From Acidobacteriota bacterium (GTDB lineage: Bacteria; Acidobacteriota; Thermoanaerobaculia; Multivoradales; UBA5704): a stretch of 64,000 bases of DNA. Made by a program: the position numbers and the translations under genes. The notes beneath the pieces are model-generated. The model made no database searches, was not told the DNA's origin, and saw only the letters and a list, made by a program, of their open reading frames with translations. Of this stretch, positions 6,517 through 42,163 are shown in pieces. Each line of letters begins with the position of its first letter. Positions within the stretch are counted from its first letter, which is position 1. The stretch covers positions 24,036-88,035 of the forward strand of contig JBEQUE010000218.1 of NCBI GenBank assembly GCA_040349255.1, written 5' to 3'.

Positions 6517-7877
6517 CTATTTCACCCAGACGGTCTTGATGTTCACGAACTCGCGGATGCCCACCTCGGACAGCTCGCGGCCGTAGCCCGAGCTCTTGAT
6601 GCCGCCGAACGGGAGCCGCGGGTCGGACTTGACGATCCCGTTCACGAAGACCGAGCCGGCCTCGATCTCCGCGGCCAGGGGGCCTCGGCGCGCGCCGGGT
6701 CGGAGGTCCAGACGCTCGCCCCGAGACCGTAGCGCGAGCGGTTCGCCAGCTCCACGGCCTCGGCCGCGTCGCGGACGCGGGTCACGGCCGCCACCGGCCC
6801 GAAGGTCTCCTCGTCGAAGGCCGGCATGCCGGGCTTCACCCCCGAGAGCAGGGTCGGCTCGTAGAACCAGCCACCCCCATCCCTGCGCCGGCCGCCGGTC
6901 CGCAGCACGGCGCCGGCCTCCACCGAGCGCCGCACCTGATCGTCCAGGTCGCCCAGCAGGTCCTCGCGCGCCATGGGCCCGACCTCGGTGCCGCGGTCGA
7001 GCGGGTCGCCGACCTTGAGCGCCTCCATCGCCTTGACCATCTCCTCCTCGAAGCGGTCGGCGACCGGCTCCTCGACGATGAAACGCTTGGCCGCGATGCA
7101 GCTCTGGCCCGAGTTGATGGTGCGCGCCTTGGCCGCCTGCTTCGCGGCTTCGACCGGATCGGCATCGGCGAGAACGAGGAACGGGTCCGAGCCACCGAGC
7201 TCGAGCACGGTCTTCTTGAGGTGACGGCCCGCCTCGGCGGCGACCTCCATGCCCGCCTTCTCGCTGCCGGTGAGAGTCACCGCCTTGATGGCCGGGTGGC
7301 GGATCAGCTCGGCCACCCGGGAGGACGGAACGAGGAGAGTCGTGAAGACGCCTTCGGGGAAGCCGGCGTCCCGGAAGACCTCCTCGATGGCGAGCGCCGT
7401 GCCCGGGACGTTGCCGGCGTGCTTGAGCAGGCCGACGTTGCCCGCCATGAGGGCCGGCGCGGCGAAGCGGAAGACCTGCCAGAACGGGAAGTTCCAGGGC
7501 ATGACCGCGAGCACCGGACCGATCGGGTCGTAGCGCACCAGGCTGCGGCTGGCGTCGGTGCCGACCGGCTCGGCGGAGAGGAAGCGCTCGGCGTGCTCGG
7601 CGTAGAACTCGCAGACCCAGGCGCACTTGTCGACCTCGCCCTCGGCGGCCGGGAGCGGCTTGCCCATCTCTTCGGTGATGAGGCGTCCGTAGTCGCCGGC
7701 GCGCTCGCGCAGGAGGTCGCCGGCCTGGGTCATGAGCTTCGCGCGCTCGGCGAACGGCACGCGGCGCCAGGAGGCGAAGGCCGCCTCGGCGCGCTCCAGC
7801 CGCTCGGCGGCCGCGGCCTCGTCATGGTCGGGGTACTCCCGGATCAGCTCGCCCGTCGCGGGGTTGATGGCTTTCAT
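6517..7877 (-). pseudogene. NAD(P)-dependent aldehyde / succinate-semialdehyde dehydrogenase, reading frame broken once
   Basis: ORF 6642..7925 carries MKAINPATGE... with ALDH motifs ([29 protein letters not shown]). The family C-terminus [14 protein letters not shown]...[13 protein letters not shown] lies in a different frame (end of ORF 6517..7626). The switch maps to a G5 run at 6678-6682. Confidence 0.8.
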
Positions 7878-18246: not shown

Positions 18247-18459
18247 CGCCACGACACGTGGCGACTCGCCACGAGGTGTGGCGTCGCGCAGCAGGGCGTG
18301 GCGAGACCATCCCCTGTTGTGGCGCCTCGCCACAACACGTGGCGGAGCGCCACAAGGCGTGGCGAGGCGCGGAGAGACGTGGCGAGGCCATCCCCGACCG
18401 TGGCGCCTCGCCACAGCGCGTGGCGCGGCGCCACGAGGCGTGGCGGGTTCCCCCCGGTG
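18247..18459. repeat. intergenic array of CGCCAC-N5-GTGGCG palindromes, including an 81-bp tandem duplication (18298-18378 / 18379-18459)
   Basis: Six 17-bp palindromes at 18247, 18267, 18328, 18348, 18409 and 18429, plus GTGGCG-cct-CGCCAC junctions. The two 81-bp units align base for base with scattered substitutions. Confidence 0.85.
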
Positions 18460-27172: not shown

Positions 27173-28185
27173 GAAGGCCTCCGATCCGCCGCGGCCGCGG
27201 AGAGCGCGGTCACGGCCATCGCATCGAGGATGTCCTCGGCCGAGCACCCCCGAGACAGGTCGTTGATCGGCCGGTCGAGACCCTGGAGCAGCGGTCCCAC
27301 CGCCCGCGCCCCGGCCAGCCTTTCGGTCAGCTTGTAGGAGATGTTCCCGGCGTCGAGGTCCGGGAACACGAGGACGTTGGCCCGGCCGGCGACCGGGCTG
27401 CCGGGTGCCTTGCGGCCGGCCACGTCCGGCACCAGGGCGGCGTCGGCCTGCAGCTCGCCGTCCACCTGGAAGTCCACGCCGCGCCCGCGCAGGACCTCCA
27501 GAGCCGCCCGCACCTTCTCGACCCGCGGATGGCGGGCGCTGCCATGGGTCGAGAACGAGAGCAGGGCCACGAGCGGCTCCTCGTCGAGCAGCGTGCGGCA
27601 GCTCCCCGCCGCGGCCTCCGCGATGTCGGCCAGTTGCTCGGGGTCGGGATCGGGGACCACGCCGCAGTCGCTGTAGATCAGCGCTCGGCCTCCGCGATCG
27701 GCAGGCAGCACCATCAGGAAGCAGGAGGAGACGGTCTTGAGGCCGGGCCTCGGGCCGATCACCCGCAGCGCGGCCCGCATGGTGTCAGCCGTGGTCGCCA
27801 CCGCGCCCATGACCGCGCCGTCCGCGCGCCGCGAGGCGACCCGCAGGCAGGCGTAGTAGAGCGGGTCGAGCGCCAGGCTGCCGGCGTCGGCCGGGTCGAG
27901 GCCGCGGGCCGCGAGGCGCTCGGAGAGGCGGGCCGTGAGGTGATGGAGGTCGGGCTCGGCGATCGGCTCCAGGACCGGGACGCTGAGAGAAAGGCCGGCC
28001 TCGGCCGCGACCCGCGCCACCTCCTCGCGCCGGCCGACGACGTTCACCCGGCAGAGGCCCGAGGCCGCGGCGCGCTCGGCGGCGGTGAGGACGCGCGGGT
28101 CCTCGCCCTCGGCGAGCACGATCGTGGCTCCGACCTGACTGGCCCGTTCGCGCAGGCGGTGCAGAAGGTTGCCGGGACCGAACAT
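27169..28185 (-). CDS. pta: phosphate acetyltransferase (short PTA_PTB form)
   Basis: ORF track 338 aa. [12 protein letters not shown]...SFSTHGS...[16 protein letters not shown]...NDLSRGCS. Confidence 0.85.
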
Positions 28186-28203
28186 CGGGTCCCGGATTCT
28201 AGC

Positions 28204-29570: not shown

Positions 29571-29640
29571 TGAGAAAGGGACCGGCAGCGGCGACGGTCC
29601 CGGGGAGTCTAGCAAGAGTCGCCCCCCTTTTCCGCAAAAA

Positions 29641-39829: not shown

Positions 39830-39880
39830 CTGGGCGCGAAGGGACACAGACAGGTGCCCTCCGGCCCGCGCGGCGCCGAT

Positions 39881-40140
39881 AACCTTGAATCGCCGCGGAC
39901 TGCGCTGATCTGGCGCGGATGAGCTGGTTTTGCCGTGGATGGGCTTTTTCCGGCCTGGATCAGCTTGCTTTGGCGCAGATAAGCCCGTCCTGCCCTGGAT
40001 GGCTCGGTTTTACGGCGGATCAGCTCGTCTTGCGCTCGATAAGGTGATTTTGCCGCGGATGAGCTTGTTCCGCGCCGGATAACCTCGAATCGGCAGGGAT
40101 AAGGCCGTTTTGTCCTGGATAAGCTCGAATCGCCTTGGAT
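39881..40140. repeat. 13 head-to-tail copies of a degenerate 20-bp unit (consensus about RAGCTYGTTTTGCCNYGGAT), perfectly phased, non-coding
   Basis: Read directly from the sequence. Every 20th base block ends in GGAT in 10 of 13 units (AGAT, CGAT, GGAC in the others), with no indels between units. No ORF of 60 aa or more on either strand, and 20 is not a multiple of 3. Confidence 0.9.
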
Positions 40141-40210: not shown

Positions 40211-40708
40211 CTACCCCTCGTAAGCCTGCTTCAGCTCGGCGATGTCGAGCTTCTTCGAGCGCATCACGACCTCCATCACCCGCCTGGACTTCCCGGGGTC
40301 CGGATCCTTCAACATCTCGGCCACGACACGAGGGACCACCTGCCAGCAGAGTCCGAACCTGTCCTTCAGCCAGCCGCACTGCCTTGCGTTCTCGTCTCCG
40401 CCCTCCGACAGCTTCTCCCAGTAGTAGTCCACCTCTTCCTGGGTATCGCAGTTGACCTGGAACGAGACGGCCTCGTTGAACTTGAACTGCGGGCCGCCGT
40501 TGAGCGCGGTGAACGTGTGGCCGTCCAGCTCGAAGGCCACGGTCAGCACCGCGCCCGCCGGCTTGCCATGGATCTCCTGGCCCGCCTCGCTGTAGCGGGC
40601 GATGCTGGTGATCCGCGAATTCCTGAAGATGCCCGTATAGAGCTTGGCGGCCTCCTCGGCCTGGTCGTCGAACCACAAGCAGGGGGTAATCGTTTGAATG
40701 AGTTGCAT
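40211..40708 (-). CDS. VOC-superfamily protein (PhnB / 3-demethylubiquinone-9 3-methyltransferase-like domain)
   Basis: Last 165 codons of ORF 40211..40786. MQLIQTITPCLWFDDQAEEAAKLYTGIF...CGWLKDRFGLCWQVVP is typical of this family. Confidence 0.8.
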   Translation of the reverse strand: MQLIQTITPCLWFDDQAEEAAKLYTGIFRNSRITSIARYSEAGQEIHGKPAGAVLTVAFELDGHTFTALNGGPQFKFNEAVSFQVNCDTQEEVDYYWEKLSEGGDENARQCGWLKDRFGLCWQVVPRVVAEMLKDPDPGKSRRVMEVVMRSKKLDIAELKQAYEG

Positions 40709-40789
40709 GACGCCTCCCGGTCTCCCGGCGCGGTGGAAATCACCGCGCCCATCCTGTTGTCGTTCGAGGAGGCGGGAAATCGACAAGGT

Positions 40790-40899
40790 CTAGCAGTCTG
40801 CGCGGCAGAACCGAACCGGGGTCCTTGCTTTTCGCTGGGACCGCCGGCTTCCCAGCCGGCCAAGCCGGAGCGCCAGATGGAGATGACCGTGGCGCGGTC
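40790..40899. repeat. left arm of a ~110-bp imperfect inverted repeat
   Basis: Hand alignment with the reverse complement of 41274..41381 gives about 7 substitutions and 3 single-base gaps, with the innermost 36 bp identical. It contains GGAG-N7-ATG GAG ATG ACC GTG GCG CGG (MEMTVAR) reading inward. Confidence 0.85.
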
Positions 40900-40917
40900 G
40901 TTTCGGGCCGCGCCGAC

Positions 40918-41272
40918 GGCCGGTTCATCGAGCTCGTCGGAGGATCCGAAGAGTTTCCTGAGCCTCTCGACAAGGCCGATGAACGGTCCGTCAAGGTCGC
41001 CGGACGGCCCATCGAGGTCGATGAACAGTCCGTCGAGGTTTCCGGACGATCCGAAGAGGTTCCCGAAGGCCCGAAGAGCCCGACGAACGGCTCACCAAGG
41101 TCGTCGAATGGCTCGTCAAGGTCGCCGGACGGTCCGGAGGGTTCGACGAGAGGCTCGTCGAGCTTCCCGGACAGCTCGTCGAGGTCGTCGGACGATCCGA
41201 CGAGGTCCTCGAACGGTCGTCGAGAGGGATGAACGGCTCATCGAGGCCGTCGGACGCCTCGTCGAGATCGAC
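40918..41272. repeat. 17 tandem units of 21 bp (two units are 20 bp), a heptad-coding repeat
   Basis: Units such as GAACGGCTCGTCAAGGTCGCC. The minus strand reads heptads VDLDEAS DGLDEPF ... GDLDEPF DDLGEPF, and the plus strand reads ERSVKVA GRPIEVD EQSVEVS. The 20-bp units at 41065-41084 and 41211-41230 break every frame. Confidence 0.85.
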
Positions 41273-41273
41273 G

Positions 41274-41381
41274 GACCGCGCCACGGTCATCTCCATCTGG
41301 CGCTCCGGCCTGGCCGGCTGGAAGCCGGCGGTCCCAGCAAAAGCAAGAACCTCCGGTGCGTTTCTTCCGCGCAGCTCCTAG
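41274..41381. repeat. right arm of the inverted repeat (overlaps the pyrF stop codon)
   Basis: See the left arm. On the minus strand it carries the same MEMTVAR start at 41296, reading inward. Confidence 0.85.
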
Positions 41382-42163
41382 CCGCTCAGGAACAGACCCT
41401 GGAGCGTGCCCTGGATCTGCATGGCGGCTTCGTAGGGATCCGGGGCGTTGCGGATAGGACGGCCGACGACGATGTAGTCGGCGCCGTTGCGGATCGCCTC
41501 CTCGACCGTGACCACCCGCTTCTGGTCGTCCGCCGGGCGGTTCCCGGCCGGGCGGATGCCGGGCGTCACCAGGATCAGGCTCTCGCCGAAGGCGTCCTTG
41601 AGCGCGCGCGCCTCCTGGCCGGAGGCGACCACTCCGTCGCAGCCGATCTCCAGGGCGCGCCGGGCGCGCGACAGCACGAGAGCGTGGACGTCGACCTCGA
41701 AGCCGAGGTCCTTCGAAAAGTCCGTCCGATCCAGGCTGGTCAGGACCGTCACCGCCAGGATGCCGAGGTCGCCCTTCTCCCGGACGGCGGCCTCCAGGAT
41801 GCCGTCGCTGCCGTGCACGGTGGTCAGGGTGATGCGCCGCTTGCGGAGCTGGCGCACGGCCGAGGCCACGGTCTCGGGCACGTCGTAGAGCTTCAAGTCG
41901 GCGAAGACCTTCTTGCCCTGGTCCACCAGCCAGTCGATGAGATCGAAGCCGCCGCCGGAGGTGATCAGCTCCAGGCCGACCTTGTAGAACTGGACCGACT
42001 CGCGCAGGCTCGCCACCAGGCGCTTCGCCTCCTCCGCGCCCGGCACGTCCAGGGCGAAGATCAGCCGGTCCTCGGGCGGGATCTCCTTGGTCGAGATGCG
42101 GATCGGATCGCCCGCCTCGGGCTCCAGGTTCGGGGCGTCTTCCATGGCGCCGCAGGCTAGCAT
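41378..42163 (-). CDS. pyrF: orotidine 5'-phosphate decarboxylase
   Basis: ORF track 261 aa. LIFALDV...FYKVGLEL...VFADLKLYDVPETV...LTTVHG...IVVGRPI. The true start may be the ATG at 42145. Confidence 0.92.
   Translation of the reverse strand: MLACGAMEDAPNLEPEAGDPIRISTKEIPPEDRLIFALDVPGAEEAKRLVASLRESVQFYKVGLELITSGGGFDLIDWLVDQGKKVFADLKLYDVPETVASAVRQLRKRRITLTTVHGSDGILEAAVREKGDLGILAVTVLTSLDRTDFSKDLGFEVDVHALVLSRARRALEIGCDGVVASGQEARALKDAFGESLILVTPGIRPAGNRPADDQKRVVTVEEAIRNGADYIVVGRPIRNAPDPYEAAMQIQGTLQGLFLSG

Follow-up and report, generated by a model that had tools for sequence, protein, structure and literature searches.

BOX elements of Streptococcus pneumoniae consist of the modules boxA and boxC, which pair with one another, and a variable number of tandem boxB units between them; they form strong stem-loops, differ in unit number between strains and sometimes create open reading frames (ORFs), and the boxE and boxF variants of the end modules in S. 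suis are 115 and 133 nt long (PMC3049150). REPINs are doublets of repetitive extragenic palindromic (REP) sequences in inverted orientation that form hairpins (PMC3337134). The element described here lies in a stretch of 64 kb (the window) from a soil genome of the class Thermoanaerobaculia (Acidobacteriota), otherwise a housekeeping stretch. Over 592 bp between pyrF and a PhnB/VOC-like gene, it is composed of CTAG, a 106-nt arm, a degenerate 21-bp minisatellite, a 104-nt inverted arm and a second CTAG. It is probably a non-coding, non-autonomous repeat insertion of the kind represented by REPINs, BOX and MITEs (miniature inverted-repeat transposable elements). The statement in a preliminary description of this DNA that no described element has such a layout was too strong, as the pneumococcal BOX is comparable (PMC3049150).

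Comparison with related genomes argues that the 592-bp element is inserted at the pyrF stop codon in this Thermoanaerobaculia lineage. Every relative found for pyrF was a metagenome-assembled genome (MAG) of this class. In the closest one with the same gene order (L003; 90% amino acid identity for pyrF and 77.5% for the VOC gene), pyrF ends with GGCTAG and is followed directly by ATCAGGATCGCCTGTCGATTTC..., with the VOC start about 95 bp further on. With blastn, L003 was aligned to the window down to position 41378 and again from 40785, and 592 bp of the window (40786-41377) stand in place of 12 bp in L003. On the minus strand, the window reads GGCTAG / GAGCTGCGCGG...CCGCGCAGACTG / CTAG / ACCTTGTCGATTTC. 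CTAG is present at both junctions in the window, while L003 has a single copy (GGCTAG). CTAG flanks the insert at either end, so that pyrF keeps its TAG stop (regenerated); the terminal CTAG at 41378-41381 contains this TAG, in agreement with the earlier remark that the right arm overlaps the pyrF stop. Of the two junctions, that at pyrF is exact and that towards the VOC gene shows an 8-nt indel relative to L003. The idea that the right arm is native pyrF-downstream sequence copied inversely was rejected, because this arm is unlike the downstream sequence of L003; both arms therefore appear to have arrived with the insert and not by a local inverted duplication. The features of the locus, in window positions, are as follows.

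40211-40708, minus strand: PhnB/VOC-like gene downstream of pyrF (Pfam 3-dmu-9_3-mt, E 9.2e-47; exact in Logan contig L002)
40709-40789, minus strand: conserved upstream block of the VOC gene (TGTCGATTTC...), common to the window, L003, L086 and L132
40790-40793, no strand: VOC-side CTAG junction, the other copy of the tetranucleotide; sequence homologous to L003 begins again at 40785, just outside
41378-41381, no strand: CTAG junction on the pyrF side, containing the pyrF TAG stop; target or duplication copy
41378-42163, minus strand: pyrF, orotidine-5'-phosphate decarboxylase (Pfam OMPdecase, E 6.5e-48; matched exactly by Logan contig L001)

On the VOC side, the order of genes is RNase PH, Mur ligase, a helix-turn-helix (HTH) protein, a 231-aa protein without known identity and the VOC gene; beyond the element follow pyrF, a MEDS histidine kinase/receiver hybrid, a second HTH protein, MutS2, DnaG and RpoD. 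L086 and L132 are also without the element, and the upstream block of the VOC gene, which starts with TGTCGAT in all of them, forms the far edge of a variable slot. From the pyrF stop to this block, four close relatives have four different contents. L003 is empty (6781-6876), and the window holds the element (40786-41377). In L086 (1857-2400), duplicated CCTGAGCGGCT[A/G]G stands on either side of a membrane-like ORF of 148 aa, and the 5' end of the VOC gene is deleted; L132 (1080-2150) has a 20-bp array and a PemK toxin-antitoxin pair. Because all four differ, the pyrF-VOC gap can be regarded as a slot whose content changes among close relatives, and intergenic turnover could be studied on it as a natural system. 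Of three additional pyrF relatives, L130, L131 and the L132 just named, none carries a copy.

The two arms were compared by global alignment of 40790-40899 (110 nt) with the reverse complement of 41274-41381 (108 nt), which gave 101 identities, six substitutions and four one-base gaps (92% identity). This bears out the inverted arms of about 110 bp in the preliminary description and corrects its count of about seven substitutions and three gaps. The innermost 36 nt (40864-40899 and 41274-41309) are identical, as had been noted. A repeat search returned an inverted pair of 48 nt with 98% complementarity (40852-40899 and 41274-41321), continued outwards over 55 nt at 78% and reaching 40798 and 41374. 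A 27-mer of the arm occurred exactly twice in the window against 0.00 expected from 100 shuffles, and GGAGCGCCAGATGGAGATGACCGTGGCGCGG is present in both arms. Each arm has the same layout, namely the head CTGGGACC, hairpin 1 (GCCGGCTTCC[C]AGCCGGC), a 9-nt linker, hairpin 2 (GCGCCA-GATGGAGATGACCG-TGGCGC) and GGTC(C). The approximately 40 nt outside the head are inverted copies between the arms and were found nowhere else in the searched sequence. For the whole element, a folding energy of -413 kcal/mol (z = -22) is predicted, with about 105 nt of pairing between the arms. Its parts are listed below.

40794-40899, plus strand: left arm (from repeat search and alignment; outer part exact in Logan contig L002), beginning with the outer ~40 nt
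40835-40842, plus strand: head CTGGGACC of the left arm
40843-40860, plus strand: hairpin 1 of the left arm, GCCGGCTTCCCAGCCGGC, followed by the linker CAAGCCGGA
40870-40895, plus strand: hairpin 2 of the left arm, with an ATG at 40877 in its loop, then GGTC
40900-40916, no strand: array linker from the left arm to the first recognisable unit, read from the sequence
40917-41272, no strand: degenerate minisatellite, 17 units of ~21 bp, parsed on the minus strand from 41272 down
41274-41377, minus strand: right arm, beginning with the outer ~40 nt
41337-41330, minus strand: head CTGGGACC of the right arm
41329-41313, minus strand: hairpin 1 of the right arm, GCCGGCTTCCAGCCGGC, then the linker
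41303-41278, minus strand: hairpin 2 of the right arm, GCGCCA-GATGGAGATGACCG-TGGCGC, with an ATG at 41296, then GGTC

The middle of the arm was found in other genomes as part of an interspersed hairpin family. A stretch of 25 nt, GCTGGGACCGCCGGCTT[N]CCAGCCGG, had a match in 43 metagenome contigs, all with 60-71% GC. The core shared with the window arm comprises only about 25-28 nt (CTGGGACC plus the GCCGGCTTCCAGCCGGC hairpin). The head, CTGGGA[CG]CGC, occurred 112 times in 265 kb of these motif contigs and 15 times in 885 kb of pyrF loci, i.e. 4.2 versus 0.17 per 10 kb, and at none of the 15 does the head continue into the hairpin sequence of the family. In the motif contigs, heads stand mostly in inverted pairs (CTGGGACC-hairpin ... 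hairpin-GGTCCCAG) of 58-285 nt with unrelated spacers and flanks, often directly after stop codons. The partner hairpins differ in sequence yet pair, for example GCCGGCT-TCC-AGCCGGC, GCCGCCA-TCT-TGGCGGC, GCCAGCA-TCC-TGCTGGC and GCCGGCA-TCT-TGCCGGC, and their pairing is kept by compensatory changes. Loops of the form ...AAGATG... or ...AGGATG... are typical of these partner hairpins. Both ATGs that open the MEM peptides of the element sit in the loop of hairpin 2; the mirrored inward starts are therefore a by-product of a mirrored hairpin. Only two heads occur in the 64 kb of the window, both within the element, and the motif was otherwise absent from the window and from 0.47 Mb of Thermoanaerobaculia loci, where heads were at background level. 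Rfam assigned no family to the element or to 11 motif loci, the matches being sub-threshold ones to miRNA-like hairpins, and a text search of the literature with the motif sequence did not retrieve it. The arm core links an uncultivated class of Acidobacteriota to a widespread REPIN-like hairpin family with the CTGGGACC head that is not in Rfam.

The likeness to REPINs consists in the short imperfect palindrome of the arm core with its conserved 5' head CTGGGA[CG]C, and in the inverted doublets with variable spacers and preserved hairpin potential in the 43 other contigs. REP heads of the GTGGGAGC type in Pseudomonas resemble the head of the arm core. However, the head tetranucleotide is CTGG here and GT[AG]G in REPs, and the two heads in the window are 503 nt apart, compared with 34-110 bp in Pseudomonas fluorescens SBW25. 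In place of a hairpin-forming spacer, a minisatellite lies between the heads, and the inverted repeat runs about 44 nt outside them. A spacing like that of REPINs was found in the metagenome doublets (58-285 nt) but not in the window element; likewise, the tens to hundreds of copies per genome that characterise REPINs were not seen in the window but are matched in other genomes by the density of 4.2 per 10 kb. Higher-order structures were also observed in this family. In contigs L087-L129, there are tandem units of about 194 nt, each with an inverted doublet, from the samples Ga0194120, Ga0194121 and Ga0194131 (for example L096 17-1185, L100, L103 and L111). On the 3.5-Mb contig JAEPEX010000115.1 (L128 818-999), a 29-nt unit, CTGGGAGCGCCGGCTTTCCAGCCGGCCTA, stands in head-to-tail runs that resemble clusters of bacterial interspersed mosaic elements.

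Between the arms, 17 tandem units of about 21 bp could be parsed from 41272 down to 40917, as described before, and Tandem Repeats Finder gave a period of 21 with 63-64% matches. The minus-strand consensus is GTCGACCTCGACGAGCCGTTC, and a near-palindrome CTCGaCGAG is contained in every unit. The units have a mean pairwise identity of 61%, with columns 7, 13 and 21 invariant. Two units are 20 bp long (41211-41230 and 41065-41084), and the last one parses as 22 bp.

As a composite intergenic repeat with pairing end modules around a tandem array, the element resembles BOX in architecture only. A variable number of units (17 here, five in a related array described below), a predicted stem-loop, spurious ORFs and an uncertain mobilising enzyme are further points in common. 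The boxB unit has 45 bp, and BOX occurs in more than 100 copies per genome. In contrast, the units of the element have 21 bp and are 61% alike, its arms are near-perfect inverted copies of one sequence instead of two modules, and one copy is known, in a GC-rich Acidobacteriota host. With 66% GC and a host from a different phylum, homology to the boxA, boxB or boxC modules is very unlikely.

Judged from its sequence, the element is non-coding, and no evidence for a protein was obtained. In a six-frame translation, the minus-strand heptad frame of the xDLDEPF type is broken twice, as had been stated for the two 20-bp units. The preliminary description had offered four possible readings of the element, one of them a decayed repeat-protein gene with an inverted copy of its 5' end; this would have encoded an acidic xDLDEPF heptad protein and suffered two frameshifts. 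The minus-strand ORF does open with GGAG-N6-ATG and continues straight into the heptad frame, and some differences between units look synonymous (CTC/CTT, GAC/GAT, CCG/CCT/CCA). A gene remnant is nonetheless highly improbable. Arms and array form one insertion, and the whole 592 bp including the start are absent from L003, L086 and L132. After restoration of the frame, the ORF runs antisense through the left arm and overlaps the VOC gene by about 165 nt to a stop at 40543. The frame-corrected heptad protein had no match among 5.8 billion clusters, a six-frame concatenate of the element had none at E<=10, none of six element ORFs was present by exact look-up in a collection of 15 billion proteins, and Pfam gave nothing above cut-off on the element ORFs. 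The entropy per codon position over the 17 units was 0.69/1.02/0.93, and the third position was not the most variable one in any frame. A coding heptad repeat under selection was rejected, as the third-position excess is absent.

The search for an intact paralog of the heptad protein yielded one short ORF. An exhaustive HMMER search of 1.84 billion representatives had a single match, P0121 (MES1240406.1, ABUT39_02200), a hypothetical protein of 53 aa from another Acidobacteriota MAG (E 3.7e-6, 71% over 38 aa). It reads five related units in frame, which speaks for a gene, and corresponds to units 1, 2, 15, 16 and 17 joined, followed by unrelated sequence. A related, much shorter array of five units therefore seems to exist elsewhere, apparently without the same arm on the side that continues into unrelated sequence. 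Repeat elements are known to create ORFs as a by-product (PMC3049150), which weakens the case for a gene further.

The connection of the outer arms to the unique flanks is real, because two independent Logan short-read contigs (L001 and L002, from SRR29434312 and SRR29434313) reproduce both exactly; reading inward from the flanks, they agree with the window as far as 41309 and 40853, inside the arms. These contigs cover the outer arms only, and the inner arms, the array and the 20-bp units are known from the window assembly alone. A chimeric or fold-back join made by the assembler could be considered, since inverted repeats are classic assembler breakpoints and the interior lies outside the Logan contigs. 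It is extremely improbable given the exact match of both outer arms and flanks in two independent assemblies and the collinearity of the flanks with L003. Moreover, the arms are not one sequence used twice, because they differ at 10 positions.

The ends of the two Logan contigs coincide with or adjoin a single-nucleotide polymorphism and a one-base indel that distinguish the arms. They are not branch points expected of a k=31 graph from the window sequence alone, and might reflect polymorphism of the arms or exchange between them in those samples. Such polymorphism would suit an invertible or recombining switch, in which recombination between the arms flips the array, whereby either strand could be read from the start on the pyrF side, and slippage between 20 and 21 bp shifts the frame. 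The arms with their 92% identity, nearly perfect over the inner 36-48 nt and drifted at the tips, look as if homogenised by recombination, and an identical ribosome-binding-site-like GGAG-N6-ATGGAGATGACCGTGGCGCGG faces inward at both ends; the paired starts had been noted before with a spacing of N7, which is N6. A switch is still distinctly unlikely. No recombinase or transposase was annotated within about 8 kb of the element, and no recombinase or invertase was among the families listed for the large ORFs of the window (25 of 83 matched families). The ORFs are broken in both directions and without homologues, the plus-strand ATG lies outside the heptad-like frame, the ATG belongs to a family-typical hairpin loop, and neither orientation has an obvious output. 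The arms are also far longer than known invertase sites. If inversion or variation in unit number were found in reads, the element would become a candidate for a recombination-based switch.

Among the four readings offered earlier, a non-autonomous mobile element with long terminal inverted repeats fits best; in its favour are the unoccupied site in L003, the CTAG at each junction and the arm motif in 43 contigs. Like the MITEs Correia and Nezha, the element is shorter than 1 kb, has terminal inverted repeats, no transposase and a highly paired fold (definition in PMC3049150). It is a 592-bp intergenic insertion free of an internal transposase gene; each junction carries CTAG, and in a relative the site is empty. 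It differs from MITEs in that its terminal inverted repeats have about 106 nt versus 26 nt in Correia elements, and in that it is GC-rich, contains a tandem array in its interior and is less conserved at the tips than in the inner arm.

Several findings weigh against an insertion of the MITE/REPIN/BOX kind. Most MITEs are best preserved at their tips, whereas the identity of the arms is highest at the inner ends (36-48 nt) and 78% at the tips. The element has 66% GC, while MITEs are usually described as AT-rich (PMC3049150). Multiple dispersed copies were not observed in the searched sequence, in which only the 25-28-nt core is multi-copy, in other genomes. With relaxed local searches, no further copy of arms or array was found in the 64-kb window or in about 0.95 Mb of related loci. 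An inner-arm 31-mer had no exact match in JGI metagenomes, an arm-tip 22-mer and the hairpin motif had none in viral contigs, and plasmids searched by blastn with the complete element were negative. A second copy of the element, and with it the multiplicity that is a defining trait of MITEs, was not found in these searches. No insertion sequence was seen in the window, and a transposase or REP-associated tyrosine transposase (RAYT) gene linked to the element was found neither in its surroundings in the window nor with tblastn in 1.2 Mb, where a probe modelled on E. coli RayT gave nothing below E 0.15. Only one of the two junctions is clean, the other being the VOC side with its 8-nt indel relative to L003. 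The empty site is known from one close syntenic relative plus two rearranged ones. Finally, a target duplication and the tips of the inverted repeats are indistinguishable, because CTAG is palindromic.

If the element is a non-autonomous repeat insertion, it would arrive as one unit and be mobilised in trans. Candidate mobilising enzymes are transposases by which CTAG, or the TA at its centre, is duplicated, and single-strand HUH-type enzymes with cleavage beside CTAG. Duplication of CTAG fits transposases of the IS5 group, and duplication of TA inside CTAG fits IS630/Tc1-like enzymes; an HUH enzyme cleaving beside the tetranucleotide would also leave CTAG at both ends. The array would then grow and shrink by slippage, a gain and loss of units supported by the P0121 relative, because it has five units. 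Pairing of the two arms, or gene conversion between them, might keep their inner parts nearly identical. In a transcript from pyrF, the element would fold into a stem of about 105 bp; that this stem could separate pyrF from the downstream gene via termination or RNase III-type cleavage is a guess.

Two hairpins of the form GGGACCG...CGGTCCC were observed elsewhere in the window (28174-28200 and 29578-29615), with TCTAGC no more than 10 nt after each. The same hexamer is the VOC-side junction of the element (40789-40794), which may be due to chance or to a -10-like motif.

Mycobacterial interspersed repetitive units (MIRUs) are tandem repeats between co-oriented genes that touch the upstream stop codon and carry small ORFs. 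The element is alike in lying in the spacer between co-oriented genes and touching the pyrF stop. MIRU units have 46-101 bp, are without flanking inverted repeats and occur at many loci.

That the element is functional in cis instead of selfish DNA is unlikely; such a function could also be a secondary use of the insert. The element could be a protein-binding array, with 17 near-palindromic CTCGaCGAG sites two helical turns apart and insulated by the hairpin arms, or else a structured RNA, a terminator or an RNase III site by which the next gene becomes uncoupled from pyrF. The invariant unit columns 7, 13 and 21 and the very stable predicted fold would suit this. So would the recurrence of arrays of 20, 21, 41 or 42 bp in the clade (window 18247-18450 and 39878-40140, L013, L014, L025, L036, L039 and L132), including a GGATAA... 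unit family kept between the window and L132. However, the closest syntenic relative does without the element, the units are only 61% alike, and the analysis yielded no candidate for a binding protein. Neither a sigma-70-like promoter nor an intrinsic terminator consensus was present in 40500-41600, and no Rfam family was assigned.

Tandem arrays of 20, 21, 41 and 42 bp are common in 0.47 Mb of Thermoanaerobaculia loci, with L006, L008, L027 and L029 as examples besides L013, L014, L025, L036, L039 and L132. Coordinates of some of them are 6830-7305 in L014, 6810-7100 in L008, 8420-8640 in L013, 2940-3296 in L027 and 11615-11815 in L039. Each of these clade arrays has its own unit sequence, often with a motif of 6-8 nt at fixed spacing; a period of 20-21 bp corresponds to two helical turns. 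Homology of the L013 array to the window array was considered and rejected, as it is a separate intergenic 21-bp array with CGGCGA every 21 bp. Besides that of the window, three arrays are capped by inverted repeats with arms of 39-68 nt and 90-97% identity.

L036, 771-1510: capped array of 15 x 20 bp, with 68-nt arms at 94%
L034, 5220-5932: capped array of 20 x 29 bp, with 57-62-nt arms at 96%
L025, 1477-1783: capped array of 5 x 21 bp, a weaker case

Their sequences are unrelated to the window element and to one another, and in every capped array the arms are far more alike than the internal units. The L034 element is absent from L029 and L028, whose flanks are 87-92% identical to those of L034 and which have other hairpin-rich sequence at the site. 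In L036, about 1.1 kb is extra where relatives have about 100 bp. The capped arrays of L034 and L036 were both observed directly upstream of pyrF and are absent from relatives.

The recurrence of a capped-array architecture with unrelated sequences points to a general building process. It is a tentative possibility that Thermoanaerobaculia carry an undescribed class of intergenic elements, i.e. degenerate arrays with units of about two helical turns (20-21 bp, in some cases 29 or 41-42 bp), of which several bear long inverted repeats of 92-97% identity as caps; despite unrelated sequences they would share one architecture, fast turnover and a common generating mechanism or function. A common mechanism might be the growth of an array inside the loop of a hairpin-forming mobile palindrome, and a common function might be that of protein-binding-site arrays or RNA processing modules. 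In that case, the window element would not be just an isolated MITE. Taken by itself, the locus carries little weight; most likely it is selfish or neutral DNA that happens to present a mirrored pair of start codons, and it is a caution to anyone inclined to see genes or switches in GC-rich repeats.

Two other arrays were observed in the window. At 39878-40140, the space from the convergent VOC gene to the 231-aa ORF is taken up by about 13 tandem 20-bp units of the GGATAAGC / GGATAAGCTCGAATCGCCTT type, in which GGAT[A/G]AG is kept; this array is exact in Logan contig L002. Its unit family (GGATAACGCTG..., CAAACAACC...) also occurs in L132 at about 1190-1450, between pyrF and the PemK toxin-antitoxin pair. 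At 18247-18450, about 10 units of 20-21 bp contain CGCCAC-N4-GTGGCG palindromes, for which Tandem Repeats Finder gave a period of 81, equal to four units. Their position is just upstream of a promoter-like TTGACA...TAAGAAT and of a gene starting with MRITSKGQVTI, which we take to encode an antitoxin of the AbrB/SpoVT type, and the units may represent an operator or an array of binding sites.

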